This document shows, piece by piece, positions 1,402-17,741 of a stretch of 24,000 nucleotides of DNA. A program made the translations under genes and the position numbers. How positions within the stretch are numbered: the first letter of the stretch is position 1; each line of letters opens with the position of its first letter. The notes below the pieces were generated by a model, which was not told where the DNA came from, ran no database searches, and saw nothing but the letters and a program-made list of their open reading frames with translations. The DNA is from Desulfobacteraceae bacterium (GTDB lineage: Bacteria > Desulfobacterota > Desulfobacteria > Desulfobacterales > Desulfosalsimonadaceae). The stretch covers positions 1-24,000 of the forward strand of contig JABZFM010000016.1 in NCBI GenBank assembly GCA_014237465.1. Reading direction: 5' to 3'.

Positions 1402-3291
1402 ATGATATTTTCAATCACTTCTTCGTTTTTTAAAAAATATTTAAAAATATTTATATATTTTTTCCTCATTGTCATCACCTGTATTGTATATCAGAACATT
1501 CACCAATATGATTTCATCAACTTTGACGACGATGCATATGTAACAGACAATTCACAAATACAAAAAGGGCTTTCGTTTCAAAATATTGCGTGGGCGTTTG
1601 GGTTTTCCGAAACCGCCAACCATTTTTACTGGCACCCGGTTACATGGGTCTCGCATATGGCAGACTGTCAGTTGTTCGGACTGAACGCCGGCATGCATCA
1701 TCTGATGAATGTTATTTTTCATGTGATGAACGCGTTGCTCCTTTTCGTCATTTTTTATAAAATGACCGGCGCACTGTGGCAAAGCGCTTTTGTCGCTGTC
1801 GTATTTGCCGTCCACCCGATCAATGTCGAATCCGTGGCATGGGTTTCAGAACGCAAAAATCTGCTGAGTACCCTGTTCTGGATGCTGTCCATGCTGGCAT
1901 ATGCGTATTATGTGAAAAAACCGTCTGCTCGGCGCTATTTTCTGCTCACTATCCCTTTTATATTAGGCCTTCTGGCCAAACCGATGCTGGTCACCCTGCC
2001 ATGTGTTTTTCTGCTGATGGATTTCTGGCCCCTGGGGCGACTCAGGCTTTTCCCCTTACCAAGCAGCCGCCATATTCAAACAGACCCGCCATCATGGCAA
2101 TCAGCACCTGTACATCAACTCATCGCCGAAAAACTCCCGCTTTTGATAATATCCTTTTTTTCGGTGGGCATCTCACTATTTTCCGCCCATATGAGCCGTC
2201 AGATCATTTCCGCTGAGAACATCCCTCTGTCGCTGAGACTGGAAAATGCAGTCGTATCGTATGTCAAGTACATCGGCAACCTGTTCTGCCCGAAAGACCT
2301 GGCCGTCTTTTACCCGTTTCCGGATACGATTCCGGTCTGGCAGGTTGTTTCAGCCGCTGTCATTTTGCTGCTCATTACAGCGGCAGCCGTGCGGCTGATC
2401 CAAAAAGCCCCGTACCTGATTGTCGGCTGGCTGTGGTATCTGGGGACACTGTTTCCCGTAAGCGGTATTTCCCAGCACGGACGGTGGCCGGAAATGGCGG
2501 ACCGTTGGGCCTACATACCGGAAATCGGCCTGCTGATCATAATTGCGTGGGGCGGCGCATCACTTTTGGCCAGACTGCCGGGACGCAGATTCATTCTTCC
2601 GACGATTGCGGCCACCGTCATCACCCTGCTGGCATTGACCGCAAAATACCAGGCAGCTTACTGGGAAAACAGCATCGCCCTTTTCGAACACGCCCTCGAC
2701 GTCACAAAAAACAACTCTGTCGCCCACTTTAATCTGGGAATTGCACTGACAAAGACGGGAAAAACCGATGAAGCTATCCGGCATTATCAAAGGGCGTTAC
2801 GCATCGATCCGAATCATCCGGACATTCATATCAATCTCGGAAACGCCCTGGCACAAAAGGGATATATTGATAAAGCCATTCTTCATCTAAGCGCTGCCGT
2901 AAAAATTGATGATCAGAATGCGACAGCACGTTACAACCTGGGAACTGCGCTGGCCACTGTCGGCCGCATTGATGAGGCCATACAGCACTTTCTCGCCGCA
3001 TTGAAGATGGATCCGAACAACGATAAAGCGCACATTAATCTGGGATCACTCCTTGCCCAAAAAGGAAATTTAACCGAAGCTGTTGAGCACTTAAAAGCGG
3101 CGATCACATTAAATCCGGAAAATTGCCTGGCATATTTTAATTTAAGCGTAATCAGTCAAAATATAAATACGATCAATGATGCGATGGCATGTTATACCCT
3201 GTCAGTGGATACGCAAGATATCCCTTCCGACATCCGCCGAAAACTGGAAATGCTGCGGTTGCTGAAAAAAAAGCTCAAAGATGAAAGGTGA
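1402..3291 (+). CDS. TMTC-like GT-C family membrane protein (putative protein O-glycosyl/mannosyl-transferase type, DUF1736-like) with C-terminal TPR domain
   Basis: 629-aa ORF. The N-terminal ~400 aa contain many hydrophobic segments. An acidic loop motif (YDFINFDDDAYVTDN) follows the first TM, as in PMT/ArnT/TMTC-type GT-C enzymes. The C-terminal ~200 aa are TPR units (AIRHYQRALRIDPNHPDIHINLGNAL...). It is a paralog of the truncated upstream gene. The ATG at 1402 lacks a clear SD, so the start is less certain than the frame. Confidence 0.8.
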   Translation: MIFSITSSFFKKYLKIFIYFFLIVITCIVYQNIHQYDFINFDDDAYVTDNSQIQKGLSFQNIAWAFGFSETANHFYWHPVTWVSHMADCQLFGLNAGMHHLMNVIFHVMNALLLFVIFYKMTGALWQSAFVAVVFAVHPINVESVAWVSERKNLLSTLFWMLSMLAYAYYVKKPSARRYFLLTIPFILGLLAKPMLVTLPCVFLLMDFWPLGRLRLFPLPSSRHIQTDPPSWQSAPVHQLIAEKLPLLIISFFSVGISLFSAHMSRQIISAENIPLSLRLENAVVSYVKYIGNLFCPKDLAVFYPFPDTIPVWQVVSAAVILLLITAAAVRLIQKAPYLIVGWLWYLGTLFPVSGISQHGRWPEMADRWAYIPEIGLLIIIAWGGASLLARLPGRRFILPTIAATVITLLALTAKYQAAYWENSIALFEHALDVTKNNSVAHFNLGIALTKTGKTDEAIRHYQRALRIDPNHPDIHINLGNALAQKGYIDKAILHLSAAVKIDDQNATARYNLGTALATVGRIDEAIQHFLAALKMDPNNDKAHINLGSLLAQKGNLTEAVEHLKAAITLNPENCLAYFNLSVISQNINTINDAMACYTLSVDTQDIPSDIRRKLEMLRLLKKKLKDER

Positions 3292-3315: not shown

Positions 3316-3632
3316 CAATGTAGCGGAAGGCTTCAGCCTTCCAGAGCCCTGGCTTTGGCCAGGGGTGATGGAGACCTGAAGGTCTCCGCTACAAGGGGCT
3401 TTAACATCCCCCGAATTTACATGGGGCGTTAACATTCCCCCGACATGGGGCATTGGCATCCCGCCGTGTCGCGGAAGGCTTCAGCCTTCCAGATCCCTGG
3501 CCTGGGGGCCAGGGATTATGGAGACCTGAAGGTCTCCGCTACAAGGGGCTTTAACATCCCCCGAATTTACATGGGGCGTTAACATTCCCCCGACATGGGC
3601 TGGTGGTATCCCGCCGTGTCGCGGAAGGCTTT
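3316..3632. repeat. 150-bp tandem repeat (2 full units plus a 17-nt start of a third), each unit beginning with an inverted-orientation copy of the three-hairpin element
   Basis: Element copies lie at 3316-3394 and 3466-3544. Hairpin order is GGAAGGC first and GGAGACC last, opposite to the copies at 915 and 1139. The marker CCGCCGTGTCGCGGAAGGCT recurs at 3461 and 3611 (period 150). Each unit also carries GGGGCTTTAACATCCCCCGAATTTACATGGGGCGTTAACATTCCCCCGACATGGG. Confidence 0.9.
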
Positions 3633-3654
3633 TTGCCCCGTTGAGCAGTATGTG

Positions 3655-3717
3655 AACCGATATATTTTAACCCGAATACTCAACCGAATTTTAGACCGAA
3701 TATTCAACCGGATATAA
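3655..3717 (+). repeat. Five direct repeats of a ~12-bp unit (consensus AACCGAATATTY), candidate regulator-binding array
   Basis: Units: AACCGATATATTTTA, ACCCGAATACTC, AACCGAATTTTA, GACCGAATATTC, AACCGGATATAA. The CCGA cores sit at 3657, 3672, 3684, 3696 and 3708, so the last four are spaced exactly 12 bp apart. The array lies upstream of the candidate promoters for the gene at 4078. Confidence 0.6.
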
Positions 3718-3870
3718 ATGAAGGATGTGGTCAGATCGTCCAATTCCAACTTGCCGGTATTTTTTTATTGACTTTATCCGCGAAAGCGTTTACATAAATT
3801 AATAATTGCTTGTTAACAGACTCACTTAATCATCCATTTCTCCATCATATAATTTTTTTTATTTATTTTC

Positions 3871-3898
3871 TTGATTTACGTTTTTTTTATGATATAAA
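3871..3898 (+). promoter_or_regulatory. Candidate sigma70-type promoter for the 4078 gene (TTGATT-N16-TATAAA)
   Basis: TTGATT at 3871-3876, a 16-nt T-rich spacer, then TATAAA at 3893-3898, in a very AT-rich 360-bp leader region. An alternative candidate is TTGACT 3768-3773 / N17 / TACATA 3791-3796. Motif match only; no experimental support. Confidence 0.3.
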
Positions 3899-3953
3899 AA
3901 CAGTGTTCACTAAATTTATCTTTGTTTTAATCAATTATTTTGAATTTTAATCA

Positions 3954-3966
3954 GGAAAGGAGGTGA
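3954..3966 (+). promoter_or_regulatory. Orphan perfect Shine-Dalgarno sequence (GGAAAGGAGGTGA) in the putative 5' UTR, STAB-SD-like
   Basis: Extended complementarity to the 16S 3' end. No ATG/GTG/TTG lies 5-10 nt downstream (AAAAAAACCAAAT follows). It sits ~112-124 nt upstream of the ATG at 4078, which has its own SD. Confidence 0.4.
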
Positions 3967-4077
3967 AAAAAACCAAATAAAACACCGAGTAACCCGTTAA
4001 AAAGTAAATATTATACACAAATGGTGAAATATTAAAATTTTACCATTTATCAAATTCAAATCTTTTGGAGGAAAAAA

Positions 4078-4920
4078 ATGAAAAAATTAGCACTTATTTT
4101 AGCATTAATGTTAATCCCCTGCAGCGCATTCGGTCTGGAAATGTTAACAGACAACGCATTGGACAACGTAACCGGTCAGAGCGGTGTTTCAATCGCTGCC
4201 GACGATATCCAGATTTTCTTAAATGTCGAAAGATTTGCATGGATCGACTGTGACGGCTATGGTACGGAATTGGCTTACGGCGGACAATGTGACTCATCTC
4301 TGGGTGGTGCGATTTATATTGATAACTTCCAGATTGACCTGCTGAACGTCAACATGATCGGCGGCAGAGGCTCAATGGCAGCTGTTAGCACATCTGAAAG
4401 CAATCAGACATTGAACGGAAACGCGTTGGGCGGTTCCACCTGCGGCGTCATCGACCTGTTCTATGACTATGGTAACACCAATTTCGGCGCATGCCTGCTT
4501 TCCGGTTCTCTTGCCGGCGCAACCAACACTCTGGGCATGGACAACTACATCAATGTCAATCCCTGGGGATCAACCTCCCCGAACGGTGGTTTCCTGGCCA
4601 AATCAATTACGATTGACGCCACCATGGCACTGCCCCTGCATTCAGCCGGATGGCGAGGCAACAACTGGGCTCATTACACAGGCAGCGAAACTATCGGCGG
4701 TGTTTTGATTGGTCTGCCGACCGCAGAAATCTACATTGGGTCACTGGTCATCACCCCGAGATTTACCGCTCAGATCAGTGCAATTCCTGCTGCTGTTGCA
4801 GGACTTTGCGCCAACGAAGGCGAATCTTACGGAACATTTGAATTACAGGGCATTACCATGTCAATACTCAGCGGATGGGTAGAAATCGCTCCTACGGGTA
4901 GAGATTATGACTCTTACTAA
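4078..4920 (+). CDS. Secreted G/N/S/T-rich protein (280 aa) with Sec signal peptide followed by a double-glycine-leader-like motif; putative cargo/structural subunit 1
   Basis: Strong SD GGAGG at 4067-4071, 6 nt before the ATG. Signal peptide MKKLALILALMLIPCSAFG, then LEMLTDNALDNVTGQ-SGVSIAADDIQIF. The N-terminal ~40 mature residues align with the next ORF. No similarity to a named family that I recognise. Confidence 0.8.
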   Translation: MKKLALILALMLIPCSAFGLEMLTDNALDNVTGQSGVSIAADDIQIFLNVERFAWIDCDGYGTELAYGGQCDSSLGGAIYIDNFQIDLLNVNMIGGRGSMAAVSTSESNQTLNGNALGGSTCGVIDLFYDYGNTNFGACLLSGSLAGATNTLGMDNYINVNPWGSTSPNGGFLAKSITIDATMALPLHSAGWRGNNWAHYTGSETIGGVLIGLPTAEIYIGSLVITPRFTAQISAIPAAVAGLCANEGESYGTFELQGITMSILSGWVEIAPTGRDYDSY

Positions 4921-4994
4921 TATCGTGTAGCGAGATTTATATTTAATGTGATATATTTTTGCATAAACGATATAAAACGGTAAGTAGCAAAAAA

Positions 4995-5030
4995 AACAGA
5001 AGCGAAGAGGGACTCCTCTTCGCTTCTGTT
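4995..5030. terminator. Perfect 16-bp stem-loop between the two cargo genes (terminator/attenuator-like)
   Basis: AACAGAAGCGAAGAGG-gact-CCTCTTCGCTTCTGTT. It is preceded by A7 and followed only by TTAATT, so the U-tract on the + strand is weak. It may act as a partial terminator or an mRNA 3'-end stabiliser for the upstream gene. Confidence 0.5.
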
Positions 5031-5063
5031 AATTGAATAACCCAAAAATCATTATTAAAAAAC

Positions 5064-6107
5064 ATGCCCCACTTATCATCCATCCGACAAATCACATTAT
5101 CCTTATTGGCATTGGCATACTCCTTATTAATTTATTTATTTATTTTTACTGTGAGTCCGGCTTGCACCTATGCCGAATTAACCGAATTGGCCAACGCTGA
5201 AATGGATTCTGTCTATGCAGCGTCCGGTATTGCCTATGGAATCAAAGACGTTCAGATATTTCATGTCATCGATCAATTTATTTATTGCCCGGATAACGGC
5301 GATGGAGATTATCTTCACTTCAAACTCTATGCCCATGACGGATTGGGCGGACCGGTAAAATACAACTTTGAATTTGCCACAGCCGGCGCCATGACAGCAT
5401 CCGGGATAATAACAATGGATATTGCGACCAATGAAATCGCCCCATTGGATGACTGGGACCTCTCAACAGGCCCTTCAGATTTTGACACTGTATATAAAGT
5501 CATGCAGCACACCCACTGCCCATTATGGGATCAGGATCTCGCATACTCTCTCATAGATTTTACATTTTCAGACGGTATCTCCAGTTATAATCTGGGAGAA
5601 TTTGACATCGGCCCCATTGACCTTCGTTCCTATGGTTTCCATATAGCACCCCATCCGGGTGATGGAGTAGATTTTGATTATTCCTTTGAGTCACATATTC
5701 AATATTTATCATATGCATACATAGCTGACCCAGTGACCCCCGCGAACACCAAACGATTAACGTTTGAAAATATGCACTTTGGCAACACCTTTGATTATGG
5801 TATCGCCGGCGATGACCCCACAGATCCAACAACATGGAAATCAGATATCGGCGAATTCCAAATCGGTGATATGTTTGGCGATCTGACCAGCACGGACCCT
5901 AAAAACTGGCACTCCCGCCCGGCTCAGATTGATGCCGTCATGACAAATCGTTGGGACAATAGCACTTATTACGGCGCCCTTCTCCTTCGCTTGCCAATGG
6001 AAGGTGCCATCCGTTTTGAAAAAGCAGACTTCGGCGGCACGGACTTCGGTCCCGGCACCATTGATGGGATTAACATCTACCGCATGGATATGTATTTGAT
6101 TCCGTAA
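5064..6107 (+). CDS. Secreted protein (347 aa), paralog of the 4078 gene in its N-terminal module; putative cargo/subunit 2
   Basis: Signal-like N-terminus (MPHLSSIRQITLSLLALAYSLLIYLFIFTVSPACTYA), then ELTELANAEMDSVYAA-SGIAYGIKDVQIF. This aligns position-by-position with LEMLTDNALDNVTGQ-SGVSIAADDIQIF of the preceding protein. No SD before the ATG at 5064. Confidence 0.75.
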   Translation: MPHLSSIRQITLSLLALAYSLLIYLFIFTVSPACTYAELTELANAEMDSVYAASGIAYGIKDVQIFHVIDQFIYCPDNGDGDYLHFKLYAHDGLGGPVKYNFEFATAGAMTASGIITMDIATNEIAPLDDWDLSTGPSDFDTVYKVMQHTHCPLWDQDLAYSLIDFTFSDGISSYNLGEFDIGPIDLRSYGFHIAPHPGDGVDFDYSFESHIQYLSYAYIADPVTPANTKRLTFENMHFGNTFDYGIAGDDPTDPTTWKSDIGEFQIGDMFGDLTSTDPKNWHSRPAQIDAVMTNRWDNSTYYGALLLRLPMEGAIRFEKADFGGTDFGPGTIDGINIYRMDMYLIP

Positions 6108-6126
6108 CCCCCCTCTTGCTTTTCCC

Positions 6127-6293
6127 CTAAATTTGACGGCTTCGTAAAAAGTCCAAATTCTGTGTTGCGCTGCAGTCTTCGTCACTGCGGAGTAGGCTAA
6201 CTACGCCTCATTCCTCAGAATTTGCGCGCCTTGAATTTGAAACTTTTTTCTTTGCCATCTGAATCTGACTTTTTACAGGATCATCAAATTTAG
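6127..6293. mobile_element. 167-bp MITE-like element with imperfect 27-bp terminal inverted repeats
   Basis: Left end CTAAATTTGACGGCTTCGTAAAAAGTC; reverse complement of the right end CTAAATTTGATGATCCTGTAAAAAGTC (21/27 identical by manual alignment). Internal pairing CAAATTCTG (6154-6162) with CAGAATTTG (6217-6225). No coding capacity. It generates the spurious TFYEAVKF peptide in the minus-strand ORF 5841..6185. Confidence 0.6.
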
Positions 6294-6358
6294 ATCCTCA
6301 TCATTATTTCTTTTTTTACCAAACTTCTTGATTTTCCTTTATAACTTATTTTTTTCAA

Positions 6359-6387
6359 TTGACAAATTATAGGTATTTAAATATAAT
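6359..6387 (+). promoter_or_regulatory. Consensus sigma70 promoter (TTGACA-N17-TATAAT) upstream of the C39 peptidase gene
   Basis: TTGACA at 6359-6364, an exact 17-nt spacer, TATAAT at 6382-6387, ~70 nt upstream of the ATG at 6458. A small hairpin GGTGGG-gaagcaa-CCCACC (6423-6441) lies in the predicted leader. Confidence 0.55.
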
Positions 6388-6457
6388 TGATAATCTTAAA
6401 TCTATTAAACCTAATAACTCTGGTGGGGAAGCAACCCACCGATAAGATGGTTTTGAT

Positions 6458-7213
6458 ATGCATGTACTTATCGGTTTAGTCATTTCAGTTTGTATCTTTG
6501 CAAGCTTCCATGATATACGAGTGATCCCTAAAGATGAGATCAGTCTTAATATCGGCGGCCAATACCCCGTGTTTACCCACCAAAACGTAACGCCGCTGTC
6601 GGCAATTTTAGATAAAAACATCGTTACGCAAACCCACGATTTCAGTTGTGGTTCAGCAGCACTTGCTACTTTACTCAATTATTACCTCAACGAAAATTTT
6701 ACAGAAAGCCAGGTTATTCAGGGGTTGATGGAATACGGTAATAAAAAAAATATAACGGAACGAAGAGCATTTTCTTTGCTGGACATGAAAAAATTTGTTG
6801 GCTTATTAGGTTATAAAGGGGCTGGTTATAAAGCCGAAATAAACGACTTAATTGAGCTCGGCACTCCCTGTATTATTCCGATTGAATTTTTGGGATACCG
6901 GCATTTCACAGTACTAAAGGGAATTTATGATAATCACATTTTCCTGGCGGACCCTTATAGGGGGAACACCAGTTATACGCTTTCAGCATTTAAAAAAATG
7001 TGGTATGAAAATGTTATTTTTATCATTGAACCCGGAGGTGCGCCAACCCTTACTGCGCTGCAACTAACCAATGATGATCTTAGATATATTAACGAGAATA
7101 CCCTTCAAGACATTCTATTTGAAAACACTCACGAGATTCCTTTTCCGAACAAACATGAACGTGAATTCTTTTTTACCTTACCCGATGAGTATAACAGATA
7201 TACTCCTCGATAA
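6458..7213 (+). CDS. Stand-alone periplasmic/membrane-anchored peptidase C39-like cysteine protease (251 aa)
   Basis: N-terminal hydrophobic signal/anchor MHVLIGLVISVCIFASF. C39 layout: Gln six residues before the catalytic Cys (QTHDFSCGSAALATLLNYY), then GYRHFTVLKG (His) and FLADPYRGN (Asp). No ABC-transporter TM or ATPase domains are attached. Confidence 0.8.
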   Translation: MHVLIGLVISVCIFASFHDIRVIPKDEISLNIGGQYPVFTHQNVTPLSAILDKNIVTQTHDFSCGSAALATLLNYYLNENFTESQVIQGLMEYGNKKNITERRAFSLLDMKKFVGLLGYKGAGYKAEINDLIELGTPCIIPIEFLGYRHFTVLKGIYDNHIFLADPYRGNTSYTLSAFKKMWYENVIFIIEPGGAPTLTALQLTNDDLRYINENTLQDILFENTHEIPFPNKHEREFFFTLPDEYNRYTPR

Positions 7214-7323
7214 TACGCTTAATTTTTGAACAAAAACATATGCTTCTAAAATTACGGTTATAATTTTTTATATATATTTTAATGATTTATATCAATATAA
7301 ACAATTGTTGTGGAGGATTAACG

Positions 7324-8850
7324 TTGAAAAAGTTTTCAAGAAAAATTTTCTTTGTCCTAAGTTTTATCTTGATCTTTGGTCTGCATATTTCTTCAGGGTT
7401 CTGCACAACAATAAATGATATTATCAGTGATTCAACATCGACTGAAGATCAAAATAACATCAACACTGATTCCGACAATATATCGATCCATGATGATAGC
7501 ACACAAACATCATATTTTGCTATCCAACTCGGTGTTTACCTCAAACAGAAAGATGCTGATAATCAAATTATTGATTTTAAGACAAAAGGTTTTGATCCTT
7601 ACATCTTTCAGTCAATAAATTCCAAAGGCCAGACTGTTTATTCGGCACGTATCGGAAAATATGAAAATTATCAAACTGCCGGCAATGAACTTTCCCGTTT
7701 GGAAAAAAATTTTAATCAAACCGCATTAATAACCTATTATGATTCTTTAAACCCTGTTGATTCAACAGAAATTCTTTCATCTTCAAGGAAACCGCCCGCT
7801 GAAGTGGCACCTGAATCTTCTGATGATCAACCGAGCGATGCGGTTCAGGAAAACTTAGAAACCGATCCCTATGCTTCAGTTAATGAATCAGAAAGTTTAA
7901 AAGCCCTTCAAGAAAAAATCAACGCTCTTGAATCGGCGATAGAGCAACTTCAAGAGGAATCTGATGTTCGCCGGCAATTAACAATAACAGAAGAAGAATC
8001 GGCGCAGGAAGAAGAAGATATTCTTGAAGCTGCCGGCCGGCAGTACACCCTTACGGAAGCAGGAAATATCAAGTTTAGAGTTGGCGTCAGTTATGCTTAT
8101 AGTGAATACGATGCGATTAAAGAAGCTGCTCGCGTGGAGGATGTGGCGGATCATACCATTTCTACATCATTGAATGTTTCTTATGGGTTAAAGGATAATG
8201 TTACTTTAGGCGTTGGCATTCCATTTGTCTATAAATACCACAAAGTCGGCACTGTGGATTCAATGGATACAAATGATCTGGGCGATCTGGGCCTATCCTG
8301 GCAATTTCAGCCGTCAAAATCAAGCGGTGATCTGCCCACAATAATTATAAACGGCAGTTTTTCGGTCCCGGTTGGCCGAAGCCCCTACGAAATTCAGGTT
8401 GGAGAGGAATTGTCCACTAGTTCCGGTTTATATTCAACCAATCTCGGCGTATCAGTCAGCCAGGTATCAGATCCGGTGGTTGTATATAGCAGTTTTGGCC
8501 TTACTTATTCGCTTCCCCTTTCTGGTATCAATCAAAAACGTGCTGAAGGCGTATTGGATAAGATTGACCCCGGTATCGGGCTTGGTGTTGGAGCCGGCAT
8601 GGGGTATGCGTTGTCTTATAAATTAAATCTTAACCTCAGCTTTAACTATTCCTATAGTTTTGAGACAACTTATAAGTATAAAAATGCCCCTGAAGCGACG
8701 AGCGGAGTCGGTGTATCCGCTGGCCTAACCCTTGGTGTCGGCTATAAGGTCAGCCAAAACCAGAACCTTAATTTTTATCTTGGCATTCCGTTGACAAATA
8801 GCAGAAGTTTTTCTTTTGGCTTTAGCACACCAATTGAATTTGAATTATAG
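7324..8850 (+). CDS. Outer-membrane protein: signal peptide + SPOR domain + acidic linker + coiled coil + C-terminal beta-barrel
   Basis: Preferred start is TTG at 7324 (SD GGAGG 7312-7316, 7-nt spacer), giving LKKFSRKIFFVLSFILIFGLHISSGFC. The upstream ATG at 7282 is an alternative. SPOR-like segment: YFAIQLGVYLKQKDADNQIIDFKTKGFDPYIFQSINSKGQTVYSARIGKYENYQTAGNELSRL. Heptad segment: SLKALQEKINALESAIEQLQEE. The last ~270 aa have alternating-residue strands with G-rich turns and end in FSFGFSTPIEFEL. Confidence 0.75.
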   Translation: MKKFSRKIFFVLSFILIFGLHISSGFCTTINDIISDSTSTEDQNNINTDSDNISIHDDSTQTSYFAIQLGVYLKQKDADNQIIDFKTKGFDPYIFQSINSKGQTVYSARIGKYENYQTAGNELSRLEKNFNQTALITYYDSLNPVDSTEILSSSRKPPAEVAPESSDDQPSDAVQENLETDPYASVNESESLKALQEKINALESAIEQLQEESDVRRQLTITEEESAQEEEDILEAAGRQYTLTEAGNIKFRVGVSYAYSEYDAIKEAARVEDVADHTISTSLNVSYGLKDNVTLGVGIPFVYKYHKVGTVDSMDTNDLGDLGLSWQFQPSKSSGDLPTIIINGSFSVPVGRSPYEIQVGEELSTSSGLYSTNLGVSVSQVSDPVVVYSSFGLTYSLPLSGINQKRAEGVLDKIDPGIGLGVGAGMGYALSYKLNLNLSFNYSYSFETTYKYKNAPEATSGVGVSAGLTLGVGYKVSQNQNLNFYLGIPLTNSRSFSFGFSTPIEFEL

Positions 8851-8892
8851 ATTTTCTGACCTGTATATATTTTATAGCTTTTTTATTCAGTG

Positions 8893-10734
8893 ATGCATTT
8901 CAGAGGAGACTTCGGGTTGTTCCTGTTTATTAAAAAGAGTTTTTTTTATACATTCATTGTGGTGGCTGTTTTTTTTTGCCGCCCATTTTATTCTTATGCG
9001 ACATTTGTTGAGCAGCTTGCGATATGTGCAAAAGGCACAGCACTTGCTAATGCATGTACGGCTGATCCTCCGGGAATCATGTCGATCCATTATAACCCGG
9101 CAGGCCTTTCTCAACTTCCTGAAGGAAAAGTGTTTGAGCAGGGTTTTCTCCTCCCCTGGCTTCAAAATACCTGGAAATATGAGGCCGACCCGGAATTTCC
9201 CGGTTTTATGTCTACATGGGGCCCTCAGGAGGGACAAGAACCTGATCCCCTTGACGGCACGAAAAGCACCAATAGCAGTGGTGTTATGTACTTACCCATC
9301 TATGACGACTTTATAAATTTTCTTGCCGGCCCGTCTGCCGGACTTTCATCCCGAAAACCCGGTTCCAAATGGACATTTGCTATTGGCAACTATGCCCCAT
9401 ATGGCGGTGGGATGAACTATAAAAGTGACAGCCCGGCAAGATTTGGTGTCAGGACCCTTTATCTCCAACATCTGATATATGCCATGCCGGCCGTCAGTTA
9501 TCAAATTTCCGAGACCTTGTCTGTGGGGATTGCTACCGGTATCGGCCAAACGGCAATGGGGCTGAGGTTAAATATGCGTTCTCCCAATGAAATGGTGGCA
9601 TTAACACGGGTTCTGGGTGATGCAACAAAGGATCTTTACATCCCGGTACTTTCTGACCTTACTCTCCCCCCGCCCTGGTTTGGCGGGGGTATCAGTCCTT
9701 ATGATCAGGTGGCCACTTTTGATCTGCAAGCTCGTGATGATTTTTCCCCAAATTATAATCTTGGTTTGTTGTGGCAACCCAAAAAGTGGTTTTCTTATGG
9801 CTTTAATTATCAAAGCGAAATCAAGTCTGACTTAACAGGTGGATATAACTTTAAATATGGAGAAGAATGGCAGCGTATGATGGCCTGGATGGGCAGTTCA
9901 CCCTTATTGCTAATCGTCAGCGGCATGTTTCAGCTGCCTACTCAGGCCGTTACCCATCAAAGTGGAACCATAACGTCTATCCGGCTTTTTCCCCAGCGCA
10001 TTCAAACCGGGATCATGGTTAAACCGACAAAAAGACTTAAGGTTTTATTTGACGTGCAATGGGCGCAATGGTCAATCATTCAAGAGGATAATTTCCAAAC
10101 TGACCAGGACATTCAGCTCCTGCAACTGGTTAAAATGCTAGGATATACAGGCGGCCACCGTAATTTAATCATTCCGCGAGAACTTAAAGACACCCTTCAT
10201 TGGAGCGCCGGGCTGGAGTATCAGCTTAAACCCAATCTTGCCCTTCGATGCGGTTATGAATTTCGGCCGACATCTACCCGGGCAAATCTGTATGACCAGC
10301 AATATTTTGTACCGGATTTGCACAATATCGGCGTCGGGGTTGGTGTAAAACTGCCCCATGGCGTAACGCTTGATATCGGTTTAGGTTATGCTTTCAACCA
10401 TTCAAATAAAATCCCGAATAACAGTACGCAAAATTTAACTTCTACTGATTTCTTTATTCCGGTATATAACCCGTATGCCGGCTTGGACGTTGAGCAGAAA
10501 TTGGAAATATTTACATTTGCGGTTGCCGTAAACATGCCCTTCCATGCCTTTATTGAGCATCAAAAGCACTTGATGCACAAACAGCATGAAGCAATTGGTC
10601 ATCTCATCGGCTTGTTTAAAAAACCATTTGCTCATAATGAAGAAACAGGCAATATCACTGAAATCATACCCGATGCTGACCCGAAAATCGAAACTGAAAC
10701 TGGAACTGAAACTGAATCTAACGCACACCAATAA
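8893..10734 (+). CDS. FadL/TodX/OMPP1-family outer-membrane transport barrel with a C-terminal His-rich/acidic extension
   Basis: N-terminal family signature after the signal peptide (AKGTALANACTADPPGIMSIHYNPAGLSQL). Long beta-rich body. A barrel-terminating strand FTFAVAVNMPF is followed by ~65 extra residues (HAFIEHQKHLMHKQHEAIGH...ETETGTETESNAHQ). Start is ambiguous: GTG 8890, ATG 8893, or TTG 8917 (SD GAGGAG 8903-8908). Confidence 0.65.
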   Translation: MHFRGDFGLFLFIKKSFFYTFIVVAVFFCRPFYSYATFVEQLAICAKGTALANACTADPPGIMSIHYNPAGLSQLPEGKVFEQGFLLPWLQNTWKYEADPEFPGFMSTWGPQEGQEPDPLDGTKSTNSSGVMYLPIYDDFINFLAGPSAGLSSRKPGSKWTFAIGNYAPYGGGMNYKSDSPARFGVRTLYLQHLIYAMPAVSYQISETLSVGIATGIGQTAMGLRLNMRSPNEMVALTRVLGDATKDLYIPVLSDLTLPPPWFGGGISPYDQVATFDLQARDDFSPNYNLGLLWQPKKWFSYGFNYQSEIKSDLTGGYNFKYGEEWQRMMAWMGSSPLLLIVSGMFQLPTQAVTHQSGTITSIRLFPQRIQTGIMVKPTKRLKVLFDVQWAQWSIIQEDNFQTDQDIQLLQLVKMLGYTGGHRNLIIPRELKDTLHWSAGLEYQLKPNLALRCGYEFRPTSTRANLYDQQYFVPDLHNIGVGVGVKLPHGVTLDIGLGYAFNHSNKIPNNSTQNLTSTDFFIPVYNPYAGLDVEQKLEIFTFAVAVNMPFHAFIEHQKHLMHKQHEAIGHLIGLFKKPFAHNEETGNITEIIPDADPKIETETGTETESNAHQ

Positions 10735-10832
10735 CCATATAATAAAACCATATAATAAAAATTTAATACCCCTCTCCTTTAAATATTTGTGAGTCACTCA
10801 TGATTTCTCGCAAATAAACAGCCACACCGCCC

Positions 10833-10861
10833 TTGACATCGTATGTTTTCAATAATAAAAT
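10833..10861 (+). promoter_or_regulatory. Candidate sigma70 promoter (TTGACA-N17-TAAAAT) upstream of the beta-propeller gene pair
   Basis: TTGACA at 10833-10838, a 17-nt spacer, TAAAAT at 10856-10861. It lies just outside the left inverted repeat that precedes the gene at 11118. Motif match only. Confidence 0.35.
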
Positions 10862-10889
10862 ATTGGTCCAGTTTATGTGAGTGCTCAAT

Positions 10890-10994
10890 AAGTCAGGGCT
10901 ATAATATGTCAGTCCACATATAACTCAATGTAGCGGAAGGCTTTAGCCTTCCATAAGTCAGTTACAAATGGAGGCCTAAAGACCTCCGCTACAT
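10890..10994 (+). repeat. Left arm of a ~105-bp inverted repeat; contains a short-form (two-hairpin) copy of the palindromic element at 10926-10994
   Basis: Core CAATGTAGCGGAAGGCTTTAGCCTTCCATAAGTCAGTTACAAATGGAGGCCTAAAGACCTCCGCTACAT differs from the reverse complement of 14918-14986 at 5 of 69 positions (manual alignment). Similarity continues outward (AAGTCAGGGCTATAATATG versus AAGTCCGGGCTAAAAATATG). Additional hairpins ACGATA-aa-TATCGT and GGCGGGG-ttta-TCCCCGCC follow at 11000-11037. Confidence 0.8.
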
Positions 10995-11117
10995 CGTTTT
11001 ACGATAAATATCGTAGTGGCGGGGTTTATCCCCGCCAAGTATTGAATCAACGTTTTGCCCTGGTTTATTGAGATGTTACCGATTTATTTATTATTCATAT
11101 TGAAAGGATTATCTGAT

Positions 11118-12803
11118 ATGCGGTTGCGTTTTGTTTTATTTGCGTTATTTATTATTATTTTGCTGCAATTTTCCAATGCGTTTTGCGAGGACAATAAACA
11201 TGATTTTTCTGTAAAAACTAAACTCCTCAGCACTATTCCGCAGAATGCTGATATTGTAGACACCTCCATTAAATTCAGTTCGGATTACAAAAACATCACT
11301 TATGTGACGTTTACGGATAAAACGCATAAATTTATCCATCTAAATAATAAAACCAGCCCTGTATATTATGCTGTTCATCCATCGACTCCTATTTTTGAGC
11401 CAGAAACAAATAAGCTGGCTTACATTGCGTATAAAAATAAGGACGGTAATGCGACAGTGACTGTTGATGGTGTTTCCGGACCTGTTTTTGATAGCGCGGA
11501 TAATTTCATATTCAGCAATGATGGTATGAGATATGCCTACCGGGGAGTTAAAAAAGATCAACAATGCACAGTGATCGATGGGAAGCCCGGACCATTATTC
11601 AAAGGTATTCCGATAAAAAATAATTTTAAATTCAGCCCGGACTCCAAACACTTCGCTTATGTTGCCTTAAAGGAAAACGGCTGTGTGCTTGTATTGGATG
11701 GGCAAGAAGATGACCAAGCATTTAATTTTATCACTGGTGTAACTTTCAGCTTCGATTCTAAGCACATTGCCTACAAGGCGAGAGTTAAAAAAAGCAGAGT
11801 AAGGGAATCCTGGCGTGTGGTTTCCGATGTAGTCAATGAAAACAGTTATGACAAAATTTTTGATCTGGTTTACAGTTATGATTCAAAAAATCTGGCTTAT
11901 GCCGCAATTAAAAACGAAAAAATGGTTATTGTTGTTAATGGTCAGGAAAAGGATTCTCAGGATATGTACGGTTTGCCTGTGTTTTCTTTGGACTCACAAA
12001 AATTAGCATACTCCTACATGAATAAAAAGAAAGCCTATGTTGCTATTAATGATAAAAGAGGGCCCGGATTCGATACCCTTTATACATTTTTTTTCAGTCC
12101 GGATTCATCAAGATATGCCTACATTGCCAAAAAAAATGATGAAATATACTGCGTTATTGATGGAGAAGTCAGTGACGCGTTTCTGGATATTGCGGCATTA
12201 AAGTTCAGTCCAAACTCTGCGCGCTATGTATATAGTTCTTCAACTGATAAGGGAAGTAAAATTATTATTGACGGAGTCCCTGGGAATAATTACCCATCCA
12301 TTGGTGACGCTTATTTCAGCCCGGATTCGAAGCATGTGGTTTATCGGGCAGTAACAAAAGGTGTAAAATGGGGCACCATCCTGAACGGAAAACAATTGGG
12401 TAAAAATTACTTTGCTATCAGCCCATATTATTTTTCTGCAGATTCACGGCATCTTGCGTTTCGGGGAATGGTAGACATGGATAAATCGGTATTGATACTT
12501 GATGGCATAGAATTACCAAAAGATAGAGCCTTTACAATCCTTGGAGATCCATGGTTCAGCCCCGATGGGAACCATATCGCTTTTCACGCCCGAATAAAAG
12601 AAAATTCGTGGAAACTTATTGTTGACGGTCACGTACTTAATGAAACATATGGTGGTTTTATAAAAGACACCCCCATAATTTTTGACTCAAACAACCATTT
12701 TCATACCATTGCGTTAAGGAATCCCGAAAATCCTGAATTTATAACAATTGATGTTGATATTCCTGACGCTGTAAAAATCAAAACGGAGCTTAAAACGCCT
12801 TGA
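11118..12803 (+). CDS. Secreted beta-propeller protein with ~12-13 PD40/TolB-like repeats (FSPDSKHxAY)
   Basis: Preferred start is ATG at 11118 (AAAGGA 9 nt upstream), giving the signal peptide MRLRFVLFALFIIILLQFSNAFC. The TTG at 11055 in the ORF track adds an implausible extension. A repeat unit of ~40-45 aa, VxxDGxxGPxF...FSPDSxxxAY, occurs about a dozen times. Confidence 0.8.
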   Translation: MRLRFVLFALFIIILLQFSNAFCEDNKHDFSVKTKLLSTIPQNADIVDTSIKFSSDYKNITYVTFTDKTHKFIHLNNKTSPVYYAVHPSTPIFEPETNKLAYIAYKNKDGNATVTVDGVSGPVFDSADNFIFSNDGMRYAYRGVKKDQQCTVIDGKPGPLFKGIPIKNNFKFSPDSKHFAYVALKENGCVLVLDGQEDDQAFNFITGVTFSFDSKHIAYKARVKKSRVRESWRVVSDVVNENSYDKIFDLVYSYDSKNLAYAAIKNEKMVIVVNGQEKDSQDMYGLPVFSLDSQKLAYSYMNKKKAYVAINDKRGPGFDTLYTFFFSPDSSRYAYIAKKNDEIYCVIDGEVSDAFLDIAALKFSPNSARYVYSSSTDKGSKIIIDGVPGNNYPSIGDAYFSPDSKHVVYRAVTKGVKWGTILNGKQLGKNYFAISPYYFSADSRHLAFRGMVDMDKSVLILDGIELPKDRAFTILGDPWFSPDGNHIAFHARIKENSWKLIVDGHVLNETYGGFIKDTPIIFDSNNHFHTIALRNPENPEFITIDVDIPDAVKIKTELKTP

Positions 12804-14794
12804 AATATTTTAAACCGATAACCATTATTTTAATAGTTTTCTTACTGACGAACAGTTCGGCTTTTAGCGAAGAACCTTCCAAAACAATAAATTTTTCCGG
12901 ACAATGGCCGTATCATCCGAGTAAGGCGATTGCGATGGATTCAGCAAGACAATTAATATATTTGGGGGATGGAGACACAATTAATATCCTGGATTCGAAC
13001 CTGAATTTCGTTTCTTCTTTTATAGCAACAAAAACCAGTCAAATCGCTGGGCTCTTTTATTCACCAACTGAGAACTTGCTTTATATTGCCTGCCGAACCG
13101 ATGGACTCAAAATATTTGACCTTACCGATGCGGAAAATCCATTGATAGTTAATTCCTACCCCCCTGATTTTCTTGAAACGGTGGGTGTTTTCATCGATGG
13201 TACAAAAGCATACCTTGCAAGCGGTATTGACGGAATGATTATCCTTGATATTACTGATAAAAAAAATCCTTCCATGCTATCTCAATCAAGGCTTCCCGGT
13301 GGTTTTGGTCTCTCATACGCCATAGATATCTATGCATCAGGAAATTATGCATATGCTGCCGACCTTTATAATGGTCTTCATATAGTCGATGTCAGTAATC
13401 CCAAGGATCCTGATTATAAGAAAGGAATTGCCCTTGCGGGGGCAACAGATATTGAGGTATCAGATACTTACCTTTATATAACACTTCAAAGCAGTGGAAT
13501 GGCAATCCTGGATATATCAACACCTGAAGACACATATGTAAGCAGTCTGTTCTCTGCTGAAGGTGTTGCAACGTCAGTCCGGGTGGACGGCGCTTTTGCC
13601 TTTATTTCATATAATTCTATCGGGATTCGGGCTCTTGACATTACAAATAAAACTGAACCTTTTCACGATCCGACATGGATTTATGACGCATCCGGCGGAA
13701 GCAGTTTGGGTTTATTTCATGATGAAAACGTTATATTTTTTGCAAACAATCAGTTTGGATTACAAAAAATTGACATAACTGATAAATCAAATATGCAGCC
13801 AGTGGCATCACATGATACACCTGCTGGTGCTATTGCAATTGATGTTTCAGGCAGCTATATTTATGCGCTTGATAATAATGTCAATGATTCACCGGAAAAA
13901 GAAGGGCTGAGGATTCATCAAATTTCCACCTCCAACCAGGCTGCCGTATTCACTTTTACAGGTTTTTGCACAACCCCAGGGACTGCAAGCGATATTGATG
14001 TCTATGGAGATTTCGCTTATGTGGCTGATGGGCAGCAAGGATTGCAGATATTACGCATTACAGATAAAACCAGTCCTGTAATAACCGGGAATTATGATAC
14101 ATCAGGAGATGCGGGCGGAATTTTTATTGACGGTAATTATGCCTATGTGGCTGACGGGGACCAGGGGATTGTTATTATAAACATTACCGACAAATCCAAT
14201 CCGACGCTTACCGCTAATTTAGAGACTGATGGTTTTTCCCGGAAAATTTTTGGGTCCGAAGATTATGCTTATGTAGCTGCAGATGATCAAGGCCTACATA
14301 TCATAAATATTTTTGACAAAACCAACCCTGAAATTACCGGAAGCTATGATACACCTGGAACTGCAAGAGGCATATATGTCAAAGACAATTATGCCTATGT
14401 GGCTGACGGAGAAAAAGGAATTTTAATAATTGATATTAGCGATAAAACAACCCCGATTCTTACAGGTACTTTAGATACCGATGGTTTTGCCGAAAACATC
14501 TCAGTTTCGGCAAATTATGTTTATGTTGCTGATGGCAAAAATGGCCTTTGCACCATTGATGCGTTTAATCCTTCTCAACCTGTTTCTATAAGTGAGTGGT
14601 CCTATAACTCACCTGGGATTACGACAGATGTTTTTAGTGGATATTTCACTGATGATGAAGAGCTATATACTTTTCTTGCTGGCGGAGCAGGCGGAATTCT
14701 TGCAGTTAATTTGAGTATTGATGATGGAAAAGACAGTGATGGGACATCAGGGGGAAGCACCGGCGGCGGATGTTTTATTCAGGCGATTAGGTAG
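12800..14794 (+). CDS. Secreted LVIVD-repeat beta-propeller protein (664 aa)
   Basis: The TTG start at 12800 overlaps the upstream TGA (cTTGA, 4-nt overlap), consistent with translational coupling. Signal peptide MKYFKPITIILIVFLLTNSSAFS. About 13 repeats of the type NYAYVADGDQGIVIINITDKSNP (LVIVD repeat signature). Gly-rich tail ...SGGSTGGGCFIQAIR. The TAG stop lies inside the first unit of a heptamer array. Confidence 0.85.
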   Translation: MKYFKPITIILIVFLLTNSSAFSEEPSKTINFSGQWPYHPSKAIAMDSARQLIYLGDGDTINILDSNLNFVSSFIATKTSQIAGLFYSPTENLLYIACRTDGLKIFDLTDAENPLIVNSYPPDFLETVGVFIDGTKAYLASGIDGMIILDITDKKNPSMLSQSRLPGGFGLSYAIDIYASGNYAYAADLYNGLHIVDVSNPKDPDYKKGIALAGATDIEVSDTYLYITLQSSGMAILDISTPEDTYVSSLFSAEGVATSVRVDGAFAFISYNSIGIRALDITNKTEPFHDPTWIYDASGGSSLGLFHDENVIFFANNQFGLQKIDITDKSNMQPVASHDTPAGAIAIDVSGSYIYALDNNVNDSPEKEGLRIHQISTSNQAAVFTFTGFCTTPGTASDIDVYGDFAYVADGQQGLQILRITDKTSPVITGNYDTSGDAGGIFIDGNYAYVADGDQGIVIINITDKSNPTLTANLETDGFSRKIFGSEDYAYVAADDQGLHIINIFDKTNPEITGSYDTPGTARGIYVKDNYAYVADGEKGILIIDISDKTTPILTGTLDTDGFAENISVSANYVYVADGKNGLCTIDAFNPSQPVSISEWSYNSPGITTDVFSGYFTDDEELYTFLAGGAGGILAVNLSIDDGKDSDGTSGGSTGGGCFIQAIR

Positions 14795-14829
14795 AAGGCT
14801 GAAGGTAGAAGGTAGAAGGCTGAAGGCTG
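14788..14829 (+). repeat. Heptamer tandem array (TAGGTAG AAGGCTG AAGGTAG AAGGTAG AAGGCTG AAGGCTG) containing the stop codon of the LVIVD gene
   Basis: Six 7-nt units read directly from the sequence. The gene's TAG (14792-14794) is the last three bases of unit 1. Every unit supplies a TAG or a TGA (TGA spans a unit boundary). A 7-nt period puts stops in all three frames. Confidence 0.9.
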
Positions 14830-14917
14830 AATACACCGGATAGTCAAACCTTAAACCTTCTTTCTCGCCAGAATCAACCGGTAACAGTTCAGTATGTTCT
14901 CAATAAATTCGGCAAAA

Positions 14918-15021
14918 CAATGTAACGGAGGTCTTTAGACCTCCATTTATAACTGACTTGTGGAAGGCTAAAGCCTTCCGCTACATGGTGATATTTGAAC
15001 TCATATTTTTAGCCCGGACTT
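14918..15021 (-). repeat. Right arm of the ~105-bp inverted repeat; short-form two-hairpin element at 14918-14986 in opposite orientation to 10926-10994
   Basis: CAATGTAACGGAGGTCTTTAGACCTCCATTTATAACTGACTTGTGGAAGGCTAAAGCCTTCCGCTACAT. See the left arm for the alignment. The flanking similarity extends to ~15021 (TAGCCCGGACTT). Confidence 0.8.
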
Positions 15022-15414
15022 TTTTAGAAGTTACACATTTCATGCTTAACCGATTGAAATATTTTGTGAAGCGATTGCCAGGACATTTTTTTCCAAATAC
15101 TCAGAAAATTTTGTAAAAATCAGGGTCCTGAGTGCCCGGCTTTGAATTATTGCCCCTCGAAGGGGCTATTTCTTCAATAATTGAGGAATATAGAAGTCAG
15201 AACTCAGAAGGAATCGGTTGTCGCTTTGCTCCAACAAATTTATTTTTTTGGCTGAGAGCTGATGGCGAATACCTTATTCTGAATTCTGAATTCCTTTCCT
15301 GACTGATTCCGTCAACGCCTTTGATCTCTGACCTGACCTTGAAGACCGGGTTCTCTATGCTTAAATAAAATTAAGTCAATAATTTAAAATCATTGAAGCA
15401 AATGGATTAAACAA

Positions 15415-17706: not shown

Positions 17707-17741
17707 CCCCATCCTGTCTTCAAAATAATTATTAAGAACCA

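Follow-up and report, generated by a model that had tools for sequence, protein, structure and literature searches.

The closest described systems to the gene cluster reported here are the Fil system of Acinetobacter and the Fap exporter of Pseudomonas. The cluster lies at positions 4078-10734 of a 24,000-nucleotide stretch (contig JABZFM010000016.1, hereafter the window) from a metagenome-assembled genome of Desulfobacteraceae, a sulfate-reducer-type bacterium. FilA has been described as the subunit that makes up "Fil fimbriae" (PMC3498257, PMC11784438), and in Acinetobacter Tol 5 monomeric FilA, recognized by Edman degradation, accompanies these long curved fimbriae (PMC3498257; PMC11784438), which are abundant on triacylglycerol-grown cells (PMC3498257). 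In the Fap system, secretion depends on the catalytic cysteine of FapD, a periplasmic protein whose target is stated as unknown; FapF forms a trimeric channel and bears a regulatory coiled coil, and FapE is the one Fap protein reported to be N-terminally processed (PMC5557850). Fil fimbriae and the fil operon were seldom mentioned in the literature searched, and no link of Fil to Fap was found there; the Fil system is already known and named, and mechanistically unstudied. Our comparison indicated that the cluster is, judged by its sequence, distantly related to the Acinetobacter Fil fimbria system and presumably anchored to peptidoglycan, the Fil system being in turn a relative of the Fap exporter.

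An earlier model-made annotation from the letters alone (the sequence-only reading) had described five co-oriented genes. All five open reading frames (ORFs) were found on the + strand, and Pfam and NCBIfam profile searches showed each of its domain calls to be correct:

4078-4920, + strand: cargo1, a FilA-like (DUF6160) subunit of 280 aa (Pfam DUF6160 4.5e-10; FilA 8e-11, N-terminus only)
5064-6107, + strand: cargo2, a second leader-bearing subunit of 347 aa (DUF6160 weak, 1.4e-3; leader hidden Markov model (HMM) 8e-8)
6458-7213, + strand: stand-alone C39 cysteine peptidase of 251 aa, FilB-like and FapD-related, predicted to be periplasmic/inner-membrane-anchored (FilB 5e-56)
7324-8850, + strand: outer-membrane channel, FilC-like, a FapF homologue (FilC 2e-51; FapF 2.6e-8; PDB FapF 5e-6)
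8890-10734, + strand: FadL/OmpP1-type outer-membrane barrel, FilD-like (Toluene_X 1.5e-45; FilD 3e-81)

The Fil matches were obtained with the NCBIfam models NF050077-81 and NF033645 ("putative pilus system" FilA-FilF), whose curated ("exception") cut-offs are Acinetobacter-specific; the window proteins fall far under them (190 vs 475, 175 vs 630, 273 vs 970 and 42 vs 220 bits), and FilA, B, C, E and F of an A. baumannii operon score above them. That reference operon comes from strain 2021CK-01407, whose 4.09-Mb chromosome is filed as a plasmid in PLSDB (L087 among our comparison loci, which carry L numbers); its filD (9887-11550) is interrupted by an in-frame stop codon. By BLASTP against the same operon, identities were 43% (C39/FilB), 33% (barrel/FilC) and 28% (FadL-type/FilD), and the match of cargo1 to FilA was confined to the N-terminus, the mature part not being alignable. 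The two clusters share a DUF6160 leader-bearing subunit, a stand-alone C39 peptidase, a coiled-coil FapF-like barrel and a FadL-type barrel in the same order. They differ in that the window holds two subunit genes whose mature parts belong to another fold family, one with Cys residues, has its barrel fused to a SPOR domain and lacks FilE and FilF, while PD40-like, LVIVD and polytopic-TPR genes travel with the module.

The sequence-only reading had taken the cluster for a distinct, undescribed variant of Fap-like logic. That it is undescribed was not borne out, as the genes are distant homologues of the named Acinetobacter filABCD family. The Fap-like part proved to be true homology: when the barrel and the peptidase were compared with FapF and with FapD/C39 by profile and structure searches, the peptidase matched the FapD model (5e-31) and the barrel the FapF model. 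Both matches lie far under the equivalog cut-offs and are known here as sequence homology, and Fil models scored higher. A. baumannii FilB and FilC likewise show secondary similarity to FapD and FapF. The Fap-like logic therefore reflects shared ancestry, though the nearest named family is Fil. The new features are the fusion of SPOR to a FilC-like barrel, the propeller and polytopic-TPR accessories in place of FilE/FilF, and a conserved leader behind the signal peptide.

The gene order was conserved well beyond this genome. A search of 1.84 billion representative proteins, clustered at 50% identity, yielded 1,823 clusters of stand-alone C39 relatives (941 with E <1e-10), a count that includes FapD-type and other C39 relatives. 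In a scan of 185,579 species genomes, the core triad of C39 peptidase, coiled-coil barrel and FadL-type barrel was encoded in at least 595 genome stretches, of which the best 80 were examined. Among these 80, the Desulfobacterota were represented by Desulfobacteraceae, Desulfoluna, Desulfatibacillum, Geomonas and Smithella, and the Gammaproteobacteria by Pseudomonas, Marinobacter, Bermanella, Oleiphilus, Thalassolituus, Alcanivorax relatives and Kistimonas. The triad was co-linear in 78 of 83 loci from these two phyla, with median gaps of 41 and 18 bp, and the FadL-type gene always followed the FilC-like gene directly; four of the five exceptions were cut by contig ends, and the fifth was L010. 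Leader-bearing ORFs, detected with an HMM of the cargo N-terminus, were found in 52 of 84 loci, nearly always immediately before the C39 gene, and the complete five-gene order was found again in L001-L004. The neighbourhood is thus co-conserved, and its arrangement is far beyond chance.

These data bear on one alternative, that the genes are chance neighbours or a loose cell-envelope neighbourhood with no common function. Separate promoter-like sites before the C39 and propeller genes and the 350 bp that separate cargo2 from the C39 gene would fit such an arrangement. However, the order held across two phyla and the directly upstream cargo genes already contradict chance, and the leader motif of the cargo fits the adjacent peptidase; we regard this alternative as scarcely credible.

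Many of the triad hosts degrade hydrocarbons or lipids (Marinobacter, Alcanivorax relatives, Oleiphilus, Thalassolituus, Bermanella, Desulfatibacillum alkenivorans, Smithella and Acinetobacter; loci L004-L083). In the gammaproteobacterial loci, a MalT/LuxR-type regulator lies upstream and a MalM-like lipoprotein downstream. The locus of D. alkenivorans (L028, 6550-9208 and 14938-16089) carries five small tandem leader-bearing cargo genes followed by an extended C39 protein of 507 aa, and a further cargo gene on the opposite strand downstream.

The peptidase had been described from the sequence as a stand-alone C39 enzyme with its own signal or anchor and the full Gln-Cys-His-Asp set, and every part of that description was recovered. 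It matched Peptidase_C39 (PF03412) at 3.3e-18 (66.2 bits vs a cut-off of 22), begins with a hydrophobic N-terminal segment (signal/anchor), and carries Q58, C64, H149 and D165. In an alignment these four fall on the catalytic residues of LahT150 (6MPZ), a double-glycine protease, and 49 diverse homologues keep them with little or no variation. Neither the window nor the related loci contained an ABC transporter.

What such a protease might cut is suggested by the N-termini of the two cargo proteins, which are laid out as follows:

4078-4134, + strand: cargo1 signal peptide, residues 1-19
4135-4179, + strand: cargo1 leader LEMLTDNALDNVTGQ, residues 20-34, with the predicted mature start at 4180
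5175-5222, + strand: cargo2 leader ELTELANAEMDSVYAA, residues 38-53, behind a signal peptide of residues 1-37

In all leader-bearing proteins found, a Sec signal peptide ending in A-x-A or A-F-G directly abuts a conserved 15-residue leader (15-16 residues in the window cargos). With the arrow marking the putative cleavage point, examples are LEMLTDNALDNVTGQ↓SGVSIA in cargo1, DLKAMDDSALSTVTGQ↓DGISIS in Pseudomonas and MQSMDDAALSAATGQ↓DGINIG in A. baumannii FilA, the last matching the cargo leader of the window. Across 64 distinct leaders, including that of A. baumannii FilA, position -15 was hydrophobic in 98% and -12 in 100%, -10 was Asp in 75%, -7 was Leu or Met in 100%, -4 was hydrophobic in 97% (Val/Ile in 88%), -2 was Gly or Ala in 100%, -1 was Gln in 83% and +2 was Gly in 100%. 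Residues past +2 follow an alternating, strand-like pattern. The leader corresponds to positions 21-41 of the FilA profile and is helical in the AlphaFold2 (AF2) prediction. The leader HMM, built from the cargo N-terminus, gave one spurious match among approximately 7,400 ORFs.

The hydrophobic register at -4, -7, -12 and -15 is that of double-glycine leaders recognized by C39 peptidases. The window system therefore shares with the peptidase-containing ABC transporters and class II bacteriocin leaders (LahT150, 6MPZ; PCAT1, 4RY2) the C39 fold, the catalytic residues, the hydrophobic register and a small residue at -2. Unlike them, the window peptidase stands alone, without a fused cytoplasmic ABC exporter, and is predicted to lie on the periplasmic side; the leader comes after a Sec signal peptide and has Gln at -1, and the cargo consists of large beta-rich proteins rather than peptides.

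Another alternative is bacteriocin or toxin export, in which the C39 enzyme would mature an antimicrobial protein that carries the leader and is released afterwards; both C39 peptidases and leaders of the double-glycine-like kind are hallmarks of bacteriocin maturation. The module has no ABC transporter, immunity gene or modification enzymes, however, and its cargo is large, beta-rich and Sec-targeted. The system is moreover chromosomal, widely conserved and syntenic with outer-membrane barrels, and its nearest relatives are fimbria and amyloid systems, which makes antimicrobial export highly improbable here.

Beyond the leader, the cargo proteins diverge. The claim that they are two paralogous secreted proteins held over approximately 65 N-terminal residues (28% identity, E 3e-6) and not beyond them. 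Cargo1, identical to the NCBI protein HF978_12715 (100% identity), scored 40.1 bits against DUF6160 (Pfam cut-off 27) and has 239 homologues with conservation over the full length. Cargo2 belongs to its own conserved subfamily with the C-terminus ...FGPGAIDGINVHRLxLxLIP. Across lineages, both ends of the cargo are kept around a variable middle of about 100-400 residues, and the C-termini are conserved (...VKVWGH, ...LEIAPH and the ...ISGH of A. baumannii FilA; ...LxLIP in the cargo2 type). An AF2 model of cargo1 built on a 113-sequence alignment was beta-rich, with a mean predicted local distance difference test score (pLDDT) of 83 and a predicted template modelling score (pTM) of 0.68; this model was used in place of one from a 20-sequence alignment, which was unusable at pLDDT 45.

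The window and the Pseudomonas fap operon are alike in having a predicted periplasmic C39 protein and a barrel with a predicted N-terminal coiled coil, distantly homologous to FapD and FapF, and alike in logic, with Sec-dependent subunits, a protease required for secretion in Fap and no periplasmic ATP source. A Fap-type functional amyloid, whose cargo is exported unfolded through a FapF-like pore and forms amyloid fibrils, would also fit the layout of subunit genes upstream of a periplasmic protease and a coiled-coil barrel. Unlike fap, the window has an obligatory FadL-type barrel and lacks FapA, FapB, FapC and FapE homologues and the imperfect N/Q-rich amyloid repeats of FapB/FapC. Neither cargo matched the FapB, FapC or FapE models, which do detect the genuine Aeromonas fap operon, and a self-BLAST of mature cargo1 and cargo2 found no internal repeats, in line with the sequence-only reading, although this is a weak test that also missed the FapC repeats. 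Gln makes up 2.4% of each mature cargo, cargo1 is confidently folded in its AF2 model, and every component scored much higher on Fil than on Fap models. The Fil-type leader HMM found no match in the Aeromonas and Cupriavidus fap operons, neither of which has a FadL-type partner. An amyloid is therefore very unlikely.

One feature of the Aeromonas operon stands beside this comparison. Aeromonas caviae FapE (L088, 8638-9285) carries (L/M)xDx(E/D)Lxx(L/M)RGR↓YV after its signal peptide, in the hydrophobic register of the Fil leader and with an invariant R-G-R, and ends in IWFS(H/R). The likeness is intriguing because FapE is the sole Fap protein for which N-terminal processing was reported. Comparison of FapE with the cargo family by HMM and by hhalign profiles was not significant (hhalign probability 0.2%), so the resemblance is only a lead.

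The barrel protein was found to have the parts assigned to it from the sequence, a periplasmic coiled coil and a peptidoglycan-binding SPOR domain ahead of an outer-membrane barrel:

~7510-7716: SPOR domain
~7864-7956: predicted coiled coil
~8044-8847: beta-barrel

Its layout runs from a signal peptide through SPOR, an acidic linker and the heptad-patterned stretch LKALQEKINALESAIEQL to the beta-barrel. The most likely start is a TTG with a GGAGG Shine-Dalgarno (SD) sequence at 7324, and a longer ORF begins at 7282. SPOR (PF05036) matched at 1.8e-8 (35 bits vs a cut-off of 21) over residues 77-145 of the 7282-start ORF, and FapF was the sole match among solved structures (5O65-5O68). The SPOR extension was present in 9 of 80 barrel homologues, all of the Desulfobacterales type; the gammaproteobacterial barrel measures approximately 335 aa.

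The last gene of the triad had been recognized as a second, FadL-type barrel, and it matched PF03349 over the full length of the profile (positions 15-421 of 421; 155.9 bits vs a cut-off of 29.7). Its treatment as an extra was not borne out, as it is a core, defining member (FilD) of the Fil family. FadL-type folds can serve as cargo shuttles in protein secretion, as PorV does in the type IX secretion system (T9SS). The FilD-like protein belongs to the FadL/OmpP1 family and resembles the PorV/PorQ family weakly (3e-9), but it scores far under the cut-offs for PorV, further T9SS components are missing, and the cargo lacks the T9SS C-terminal domain.

Other surface systems offered analogies in function only. 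Curli share the logic of major and minor subunits with a dedicated outer-membrane channel, without homology, and the type V (Bacteroidota) pili share protease-triggered polymerization after removal of an N-terminal segment. Profile scans found no sequence similarity to Csg, Fim or Mfa proteins in the window, and the nine genes scanned gave no Pfam or NCBIfam match to signature proteins of curli, chaperone-usher, type IV or type V pili.

The obligatory FadL-family partner brings in an alternative with more to recommend it: the secretion of non-polymerizing surface or extracellular proteins tied to the handling of hydrophobic substrates, for example with the cargo coating the cell or an oil/lipid interface and the FadL-type barrel taking up the hydrophobic compound. 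The Pseudomonas homologue of the barrel is weakly similar to FadL and to the alkane-uptake protein AupA, many triad hosts are the hydrocarbon or lipid degraders listed above, Tol 5 forms Fil fimbriae mainly on triacylglycerol (PMC3498257), and cargo size varies widely around the conserved ends. The host pattern derives, however, from the 80 best matches of one scan with uncontrolled sampling, FilA is tied to fibres and not to a coat, ORF and profile scans found no hydrocarbon or lipid catabolic genes in the window, and FadL-like barrels also act in protein secretion, as in the T9SS. We consider a hydrophobic-substrate role possible, though unlikely.

The explanation that we favour, with moderate confidence, is a Fil-type outer-membrane system for the secretion and assembly of surface protein fibres or a coat, of the same superfamily as the Fap exporter. 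Under this mechanism, two FilA-like subunits would be made as pre-pro-proteins, each with a Sec signal peptide, an amphipathic leader of 15-16 residues and a mature domain. Sec export and cleavage by signal peptidase would leave a periplasmic pro-subunit that starts with the leader. The FilB-like C39 protein would recognize that leader through the hydrophobic residues at -15, -12, -7 and -4 and the small residue at -2, and would remove it at or next to G-Q↓x-G. The processed subunit may then exit through the FilC-like channel, whose coiled coil would reach into the periplasm and which, in this lineage, the SPOR domain would tether to peptidoglycan. The FilD-like FadL/PorV-type barrel would be an obligatory partner, perhaps anchoring or shuttling subunits at the outer membrane. 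Outside the cell, we infer that subunits could join through the conserved N-terminal strand, freed by leader removal, and the conserved C-terminal strand, with cargo1 probably the abundant, major subunit and cargo2 the minor one. Leader removal and export through the FilC-like channel are supported by the Fap precedent of FapD and FapF, and the fibre end-point by the observations on FilA and Fil fimbriae in Acinetobacter Tol 5. The homologies, the synteny, the catalytic residues and the leader conservation are direct results of the analysis; cleavage, the route of export, the part played by FilD and polymerization are inferred.

Several findings weigh against this mechanism. The link between FilA and fibres in the Acinetobacter Tol 5 literature is correlative (the Edman data for FilA reportedly come from Hori et al. 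2011, J Biosci Bioeng 111:31), and the literature holds no experiments on any FilB, FilC or FilD. No window protein matched the FilE or FilF models or the corresponding A. baumannii proteins, and the same models detect the reference operon. L010 has cargo genes and a C39 gene without adjacent barrels. Conversely, loci of the Marinobacter, Bermanella and Oleiphilus type have the peptidase and both barrels with no leader-bearing cargo gene within 10 kb (L018, L020-L023, L025, L029, L032, L037, L039, L049, L050, L057, L059-L061, L063, L067, L070, L071, L073-L076, L078 and L080), so that their substrates would have to be encoded elsewhere or carry a different leader.

The leader and the cargo fold add further points on this side. 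The leader has Gln at -1, not Gly, Ala or Ser, and the native leader did not match the 15-residue double-glycine model TIGR01847; in favour of the mechanism, an artificial leader with a single Q-to-G change at -1 aligned end to end in that register (profile positions 2-15 of 15), at 13.5 bits against the cut-off of 15.7. The site of cleavage is accordingly unproven, and the leader might act as a docking helix instead. The predicted fold of the cargo1 monomer is compact and of good confidence, which by itself gives no sign of a fibre, and Foldseek found no structural relative of the model in PDB or BFVD, so polymerization gains no support by analogy. Four cysteines are invariant or nearly so in the cargo1 family (C58, C71, C122 and C139) but missing from the FilA-like proteins of gammaproteobacterial loci and of Acinetobacter. 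They fit poorly with threading of an unfolded substrate through a narrow 12-strand FapF-type pore, and would not be expected in the substrate of such a pore in an anaerobe.

The leader is nevertheless the most useful new point of this study. Its conservation provides a concrete candidate substrate and cleavage site for periplasmic C39 proteases, whose Fap target is stated to be unknown (PMC5557850), and thus a testable substrate for an uncharacterized class of enzymes. A wider reading, which we put forward only tentatively and hold to be rather doubtful, is that Fil and Fap form one widespread secretion superfamily with two-step targeting, in which a Sec signal is followed by a double-glycine-like propeptide that a periplasmic C39 protease reads and removes, licensing export or polymerization. 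The Desulfobacterota would then have a SPOR-anchored sub-type, served by two propellers and possibly by GT-C glycosyltransferases, with fibres built from subunits of a fold absent from all solved structures. If true, this would supply the substrate class that has long been sought for FapD-type proteases. Fil itself appears as a neglected but common system, and in the Desulfobacterota our results point to a new type of appendage among anaerobes, one that has no relation to type IV pili and whose subunit lacks a known structural relative.

Expression signals around the cargo genes had also been described from the sequence, namely a strong SD, an AT-rich leader region and a stem-loop after cargo1. 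All are present, and the SD and the hairpin were found again in related loci:

3640-4077, + strand: AT-rich 5' region of cargo1, ~440 nt, with a GGAGG SD at 4068-4072
4995-5030, + strand: 16-bp GC-rich hairpin after cargo1 (minimum free energy z = -7.2)
6359-6387, + strand: sigma-70-like consensus promoter TTGACA-17-TATAAT before the C39 gene (12/12, consensus match only)

The SD motif TTTGGAGGAAA(A/C)AATG and an upstream region of approximately 33-35% GC are conserved in L002-L004. The hairpin is terminator-like, with a T-run on the minus strand only, and equivalent hairpins with flanking A/T runs typical of terminators follow the first cargo gene in L002-L004, L011 and L014; it is probably an attenuator/terminator or a 3'-end stabilizer. 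Cargo1 was read as the abundant subunit because of its strong SD and this hairpin. A near-perfect sigma-70 consensus (11/12) also lies at 10833-10861, before the PD40-like gene. The hairpin after cargo1 and the consensus promoter before the C39 gene suggest that the cluster probably comprises several transcription units.

No Rfam family matched the window or the long 5' region, which argues against a riboswitch. A row of four to five motifs of the AACCGA/ACCCGA type, at intervals of 12-15 bp (3655-3712), immediately precedes the AT-rich 5' region and may bind a regulator. Two direct repeats of ~150 bp (3319-3631), 94% identical and with internal inverted repeats, separate the upstream TPR gene from the 5' region of cargo1; no copy occurred in 89 other loci, and they had no Rfam match.

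Genes on either side of the cluster were considered as accessories:

52-837: truncated paralogue of the 1402-3291 gene, its C-terminal TPR part, running off the window start
1402-3291, + strand: polytopic membrane protein with a C-terminal TPR domain, candidate accessory
11118-12803, + strand: secreted PD40/TolB-like repeat protein (beta-propeller), lineage-specific accessory (PD40 and TmcD-like repeats)
12800-14794, + strand: LVIVD-repeat beta-propeller, lineage-specific accessory (LVIVD 2e-79; choice-of-anchor B 2.5e-22)

The polytopic-TPR gene has two to four homologues in tandem ahead of the cargo genes in L001-L004, L014 and L017; in L028 they are found on the other strand. The window genes at 52-837 and 1402-3291 are likewise tandem copies. 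The membrane domain of the 1402-3291 protein had no Pfam match, and a "weak" PMT_2 similarity was seen only in homologues; a firm glycosyltransferase assignment was dropped for lack of a Pfam match, and the protein is possibly a GT-C glycosyltransferase.

The suggestion that the genes from 11118 to 18857 might belong to the same system held for the two propellers, which travel with the module in the Desulfobacterota, and not for the TPR lipoprotein and the coiled-coil membrane protein. These last two (15415-18857), a lipoprotein that passes the cut-off of the PrsT model (346 vs 312 bits) and a coiled-coil protein that is well conserved, always stand as a pair beside topA-dprA-secDF (L084, L085 and L086). 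They were rejected as parts of the system, since L086 keeps the pair with no Fil module within 10 kb, and are taken as genes of the chromosome backbone, probably unrelated to it.

Both propeller genes are plausible lineage-specific accessories of the module. The PD40-like gene is linked to it in L002, L003, L009, L014, L084 and L085, following the FadL-type gene in L009 and L014, and lies between the cargo genes and the C39 gene in two Geobacterales loci (L007 and L011). The LVIVD gene follows the PD40-like gene in L002, L003, L084 and L085. The LVIVD propeller ends in a Gly/Ser-rich stretch followed by GGGCFIQAIR, which may be an unrecognized sorting signal.

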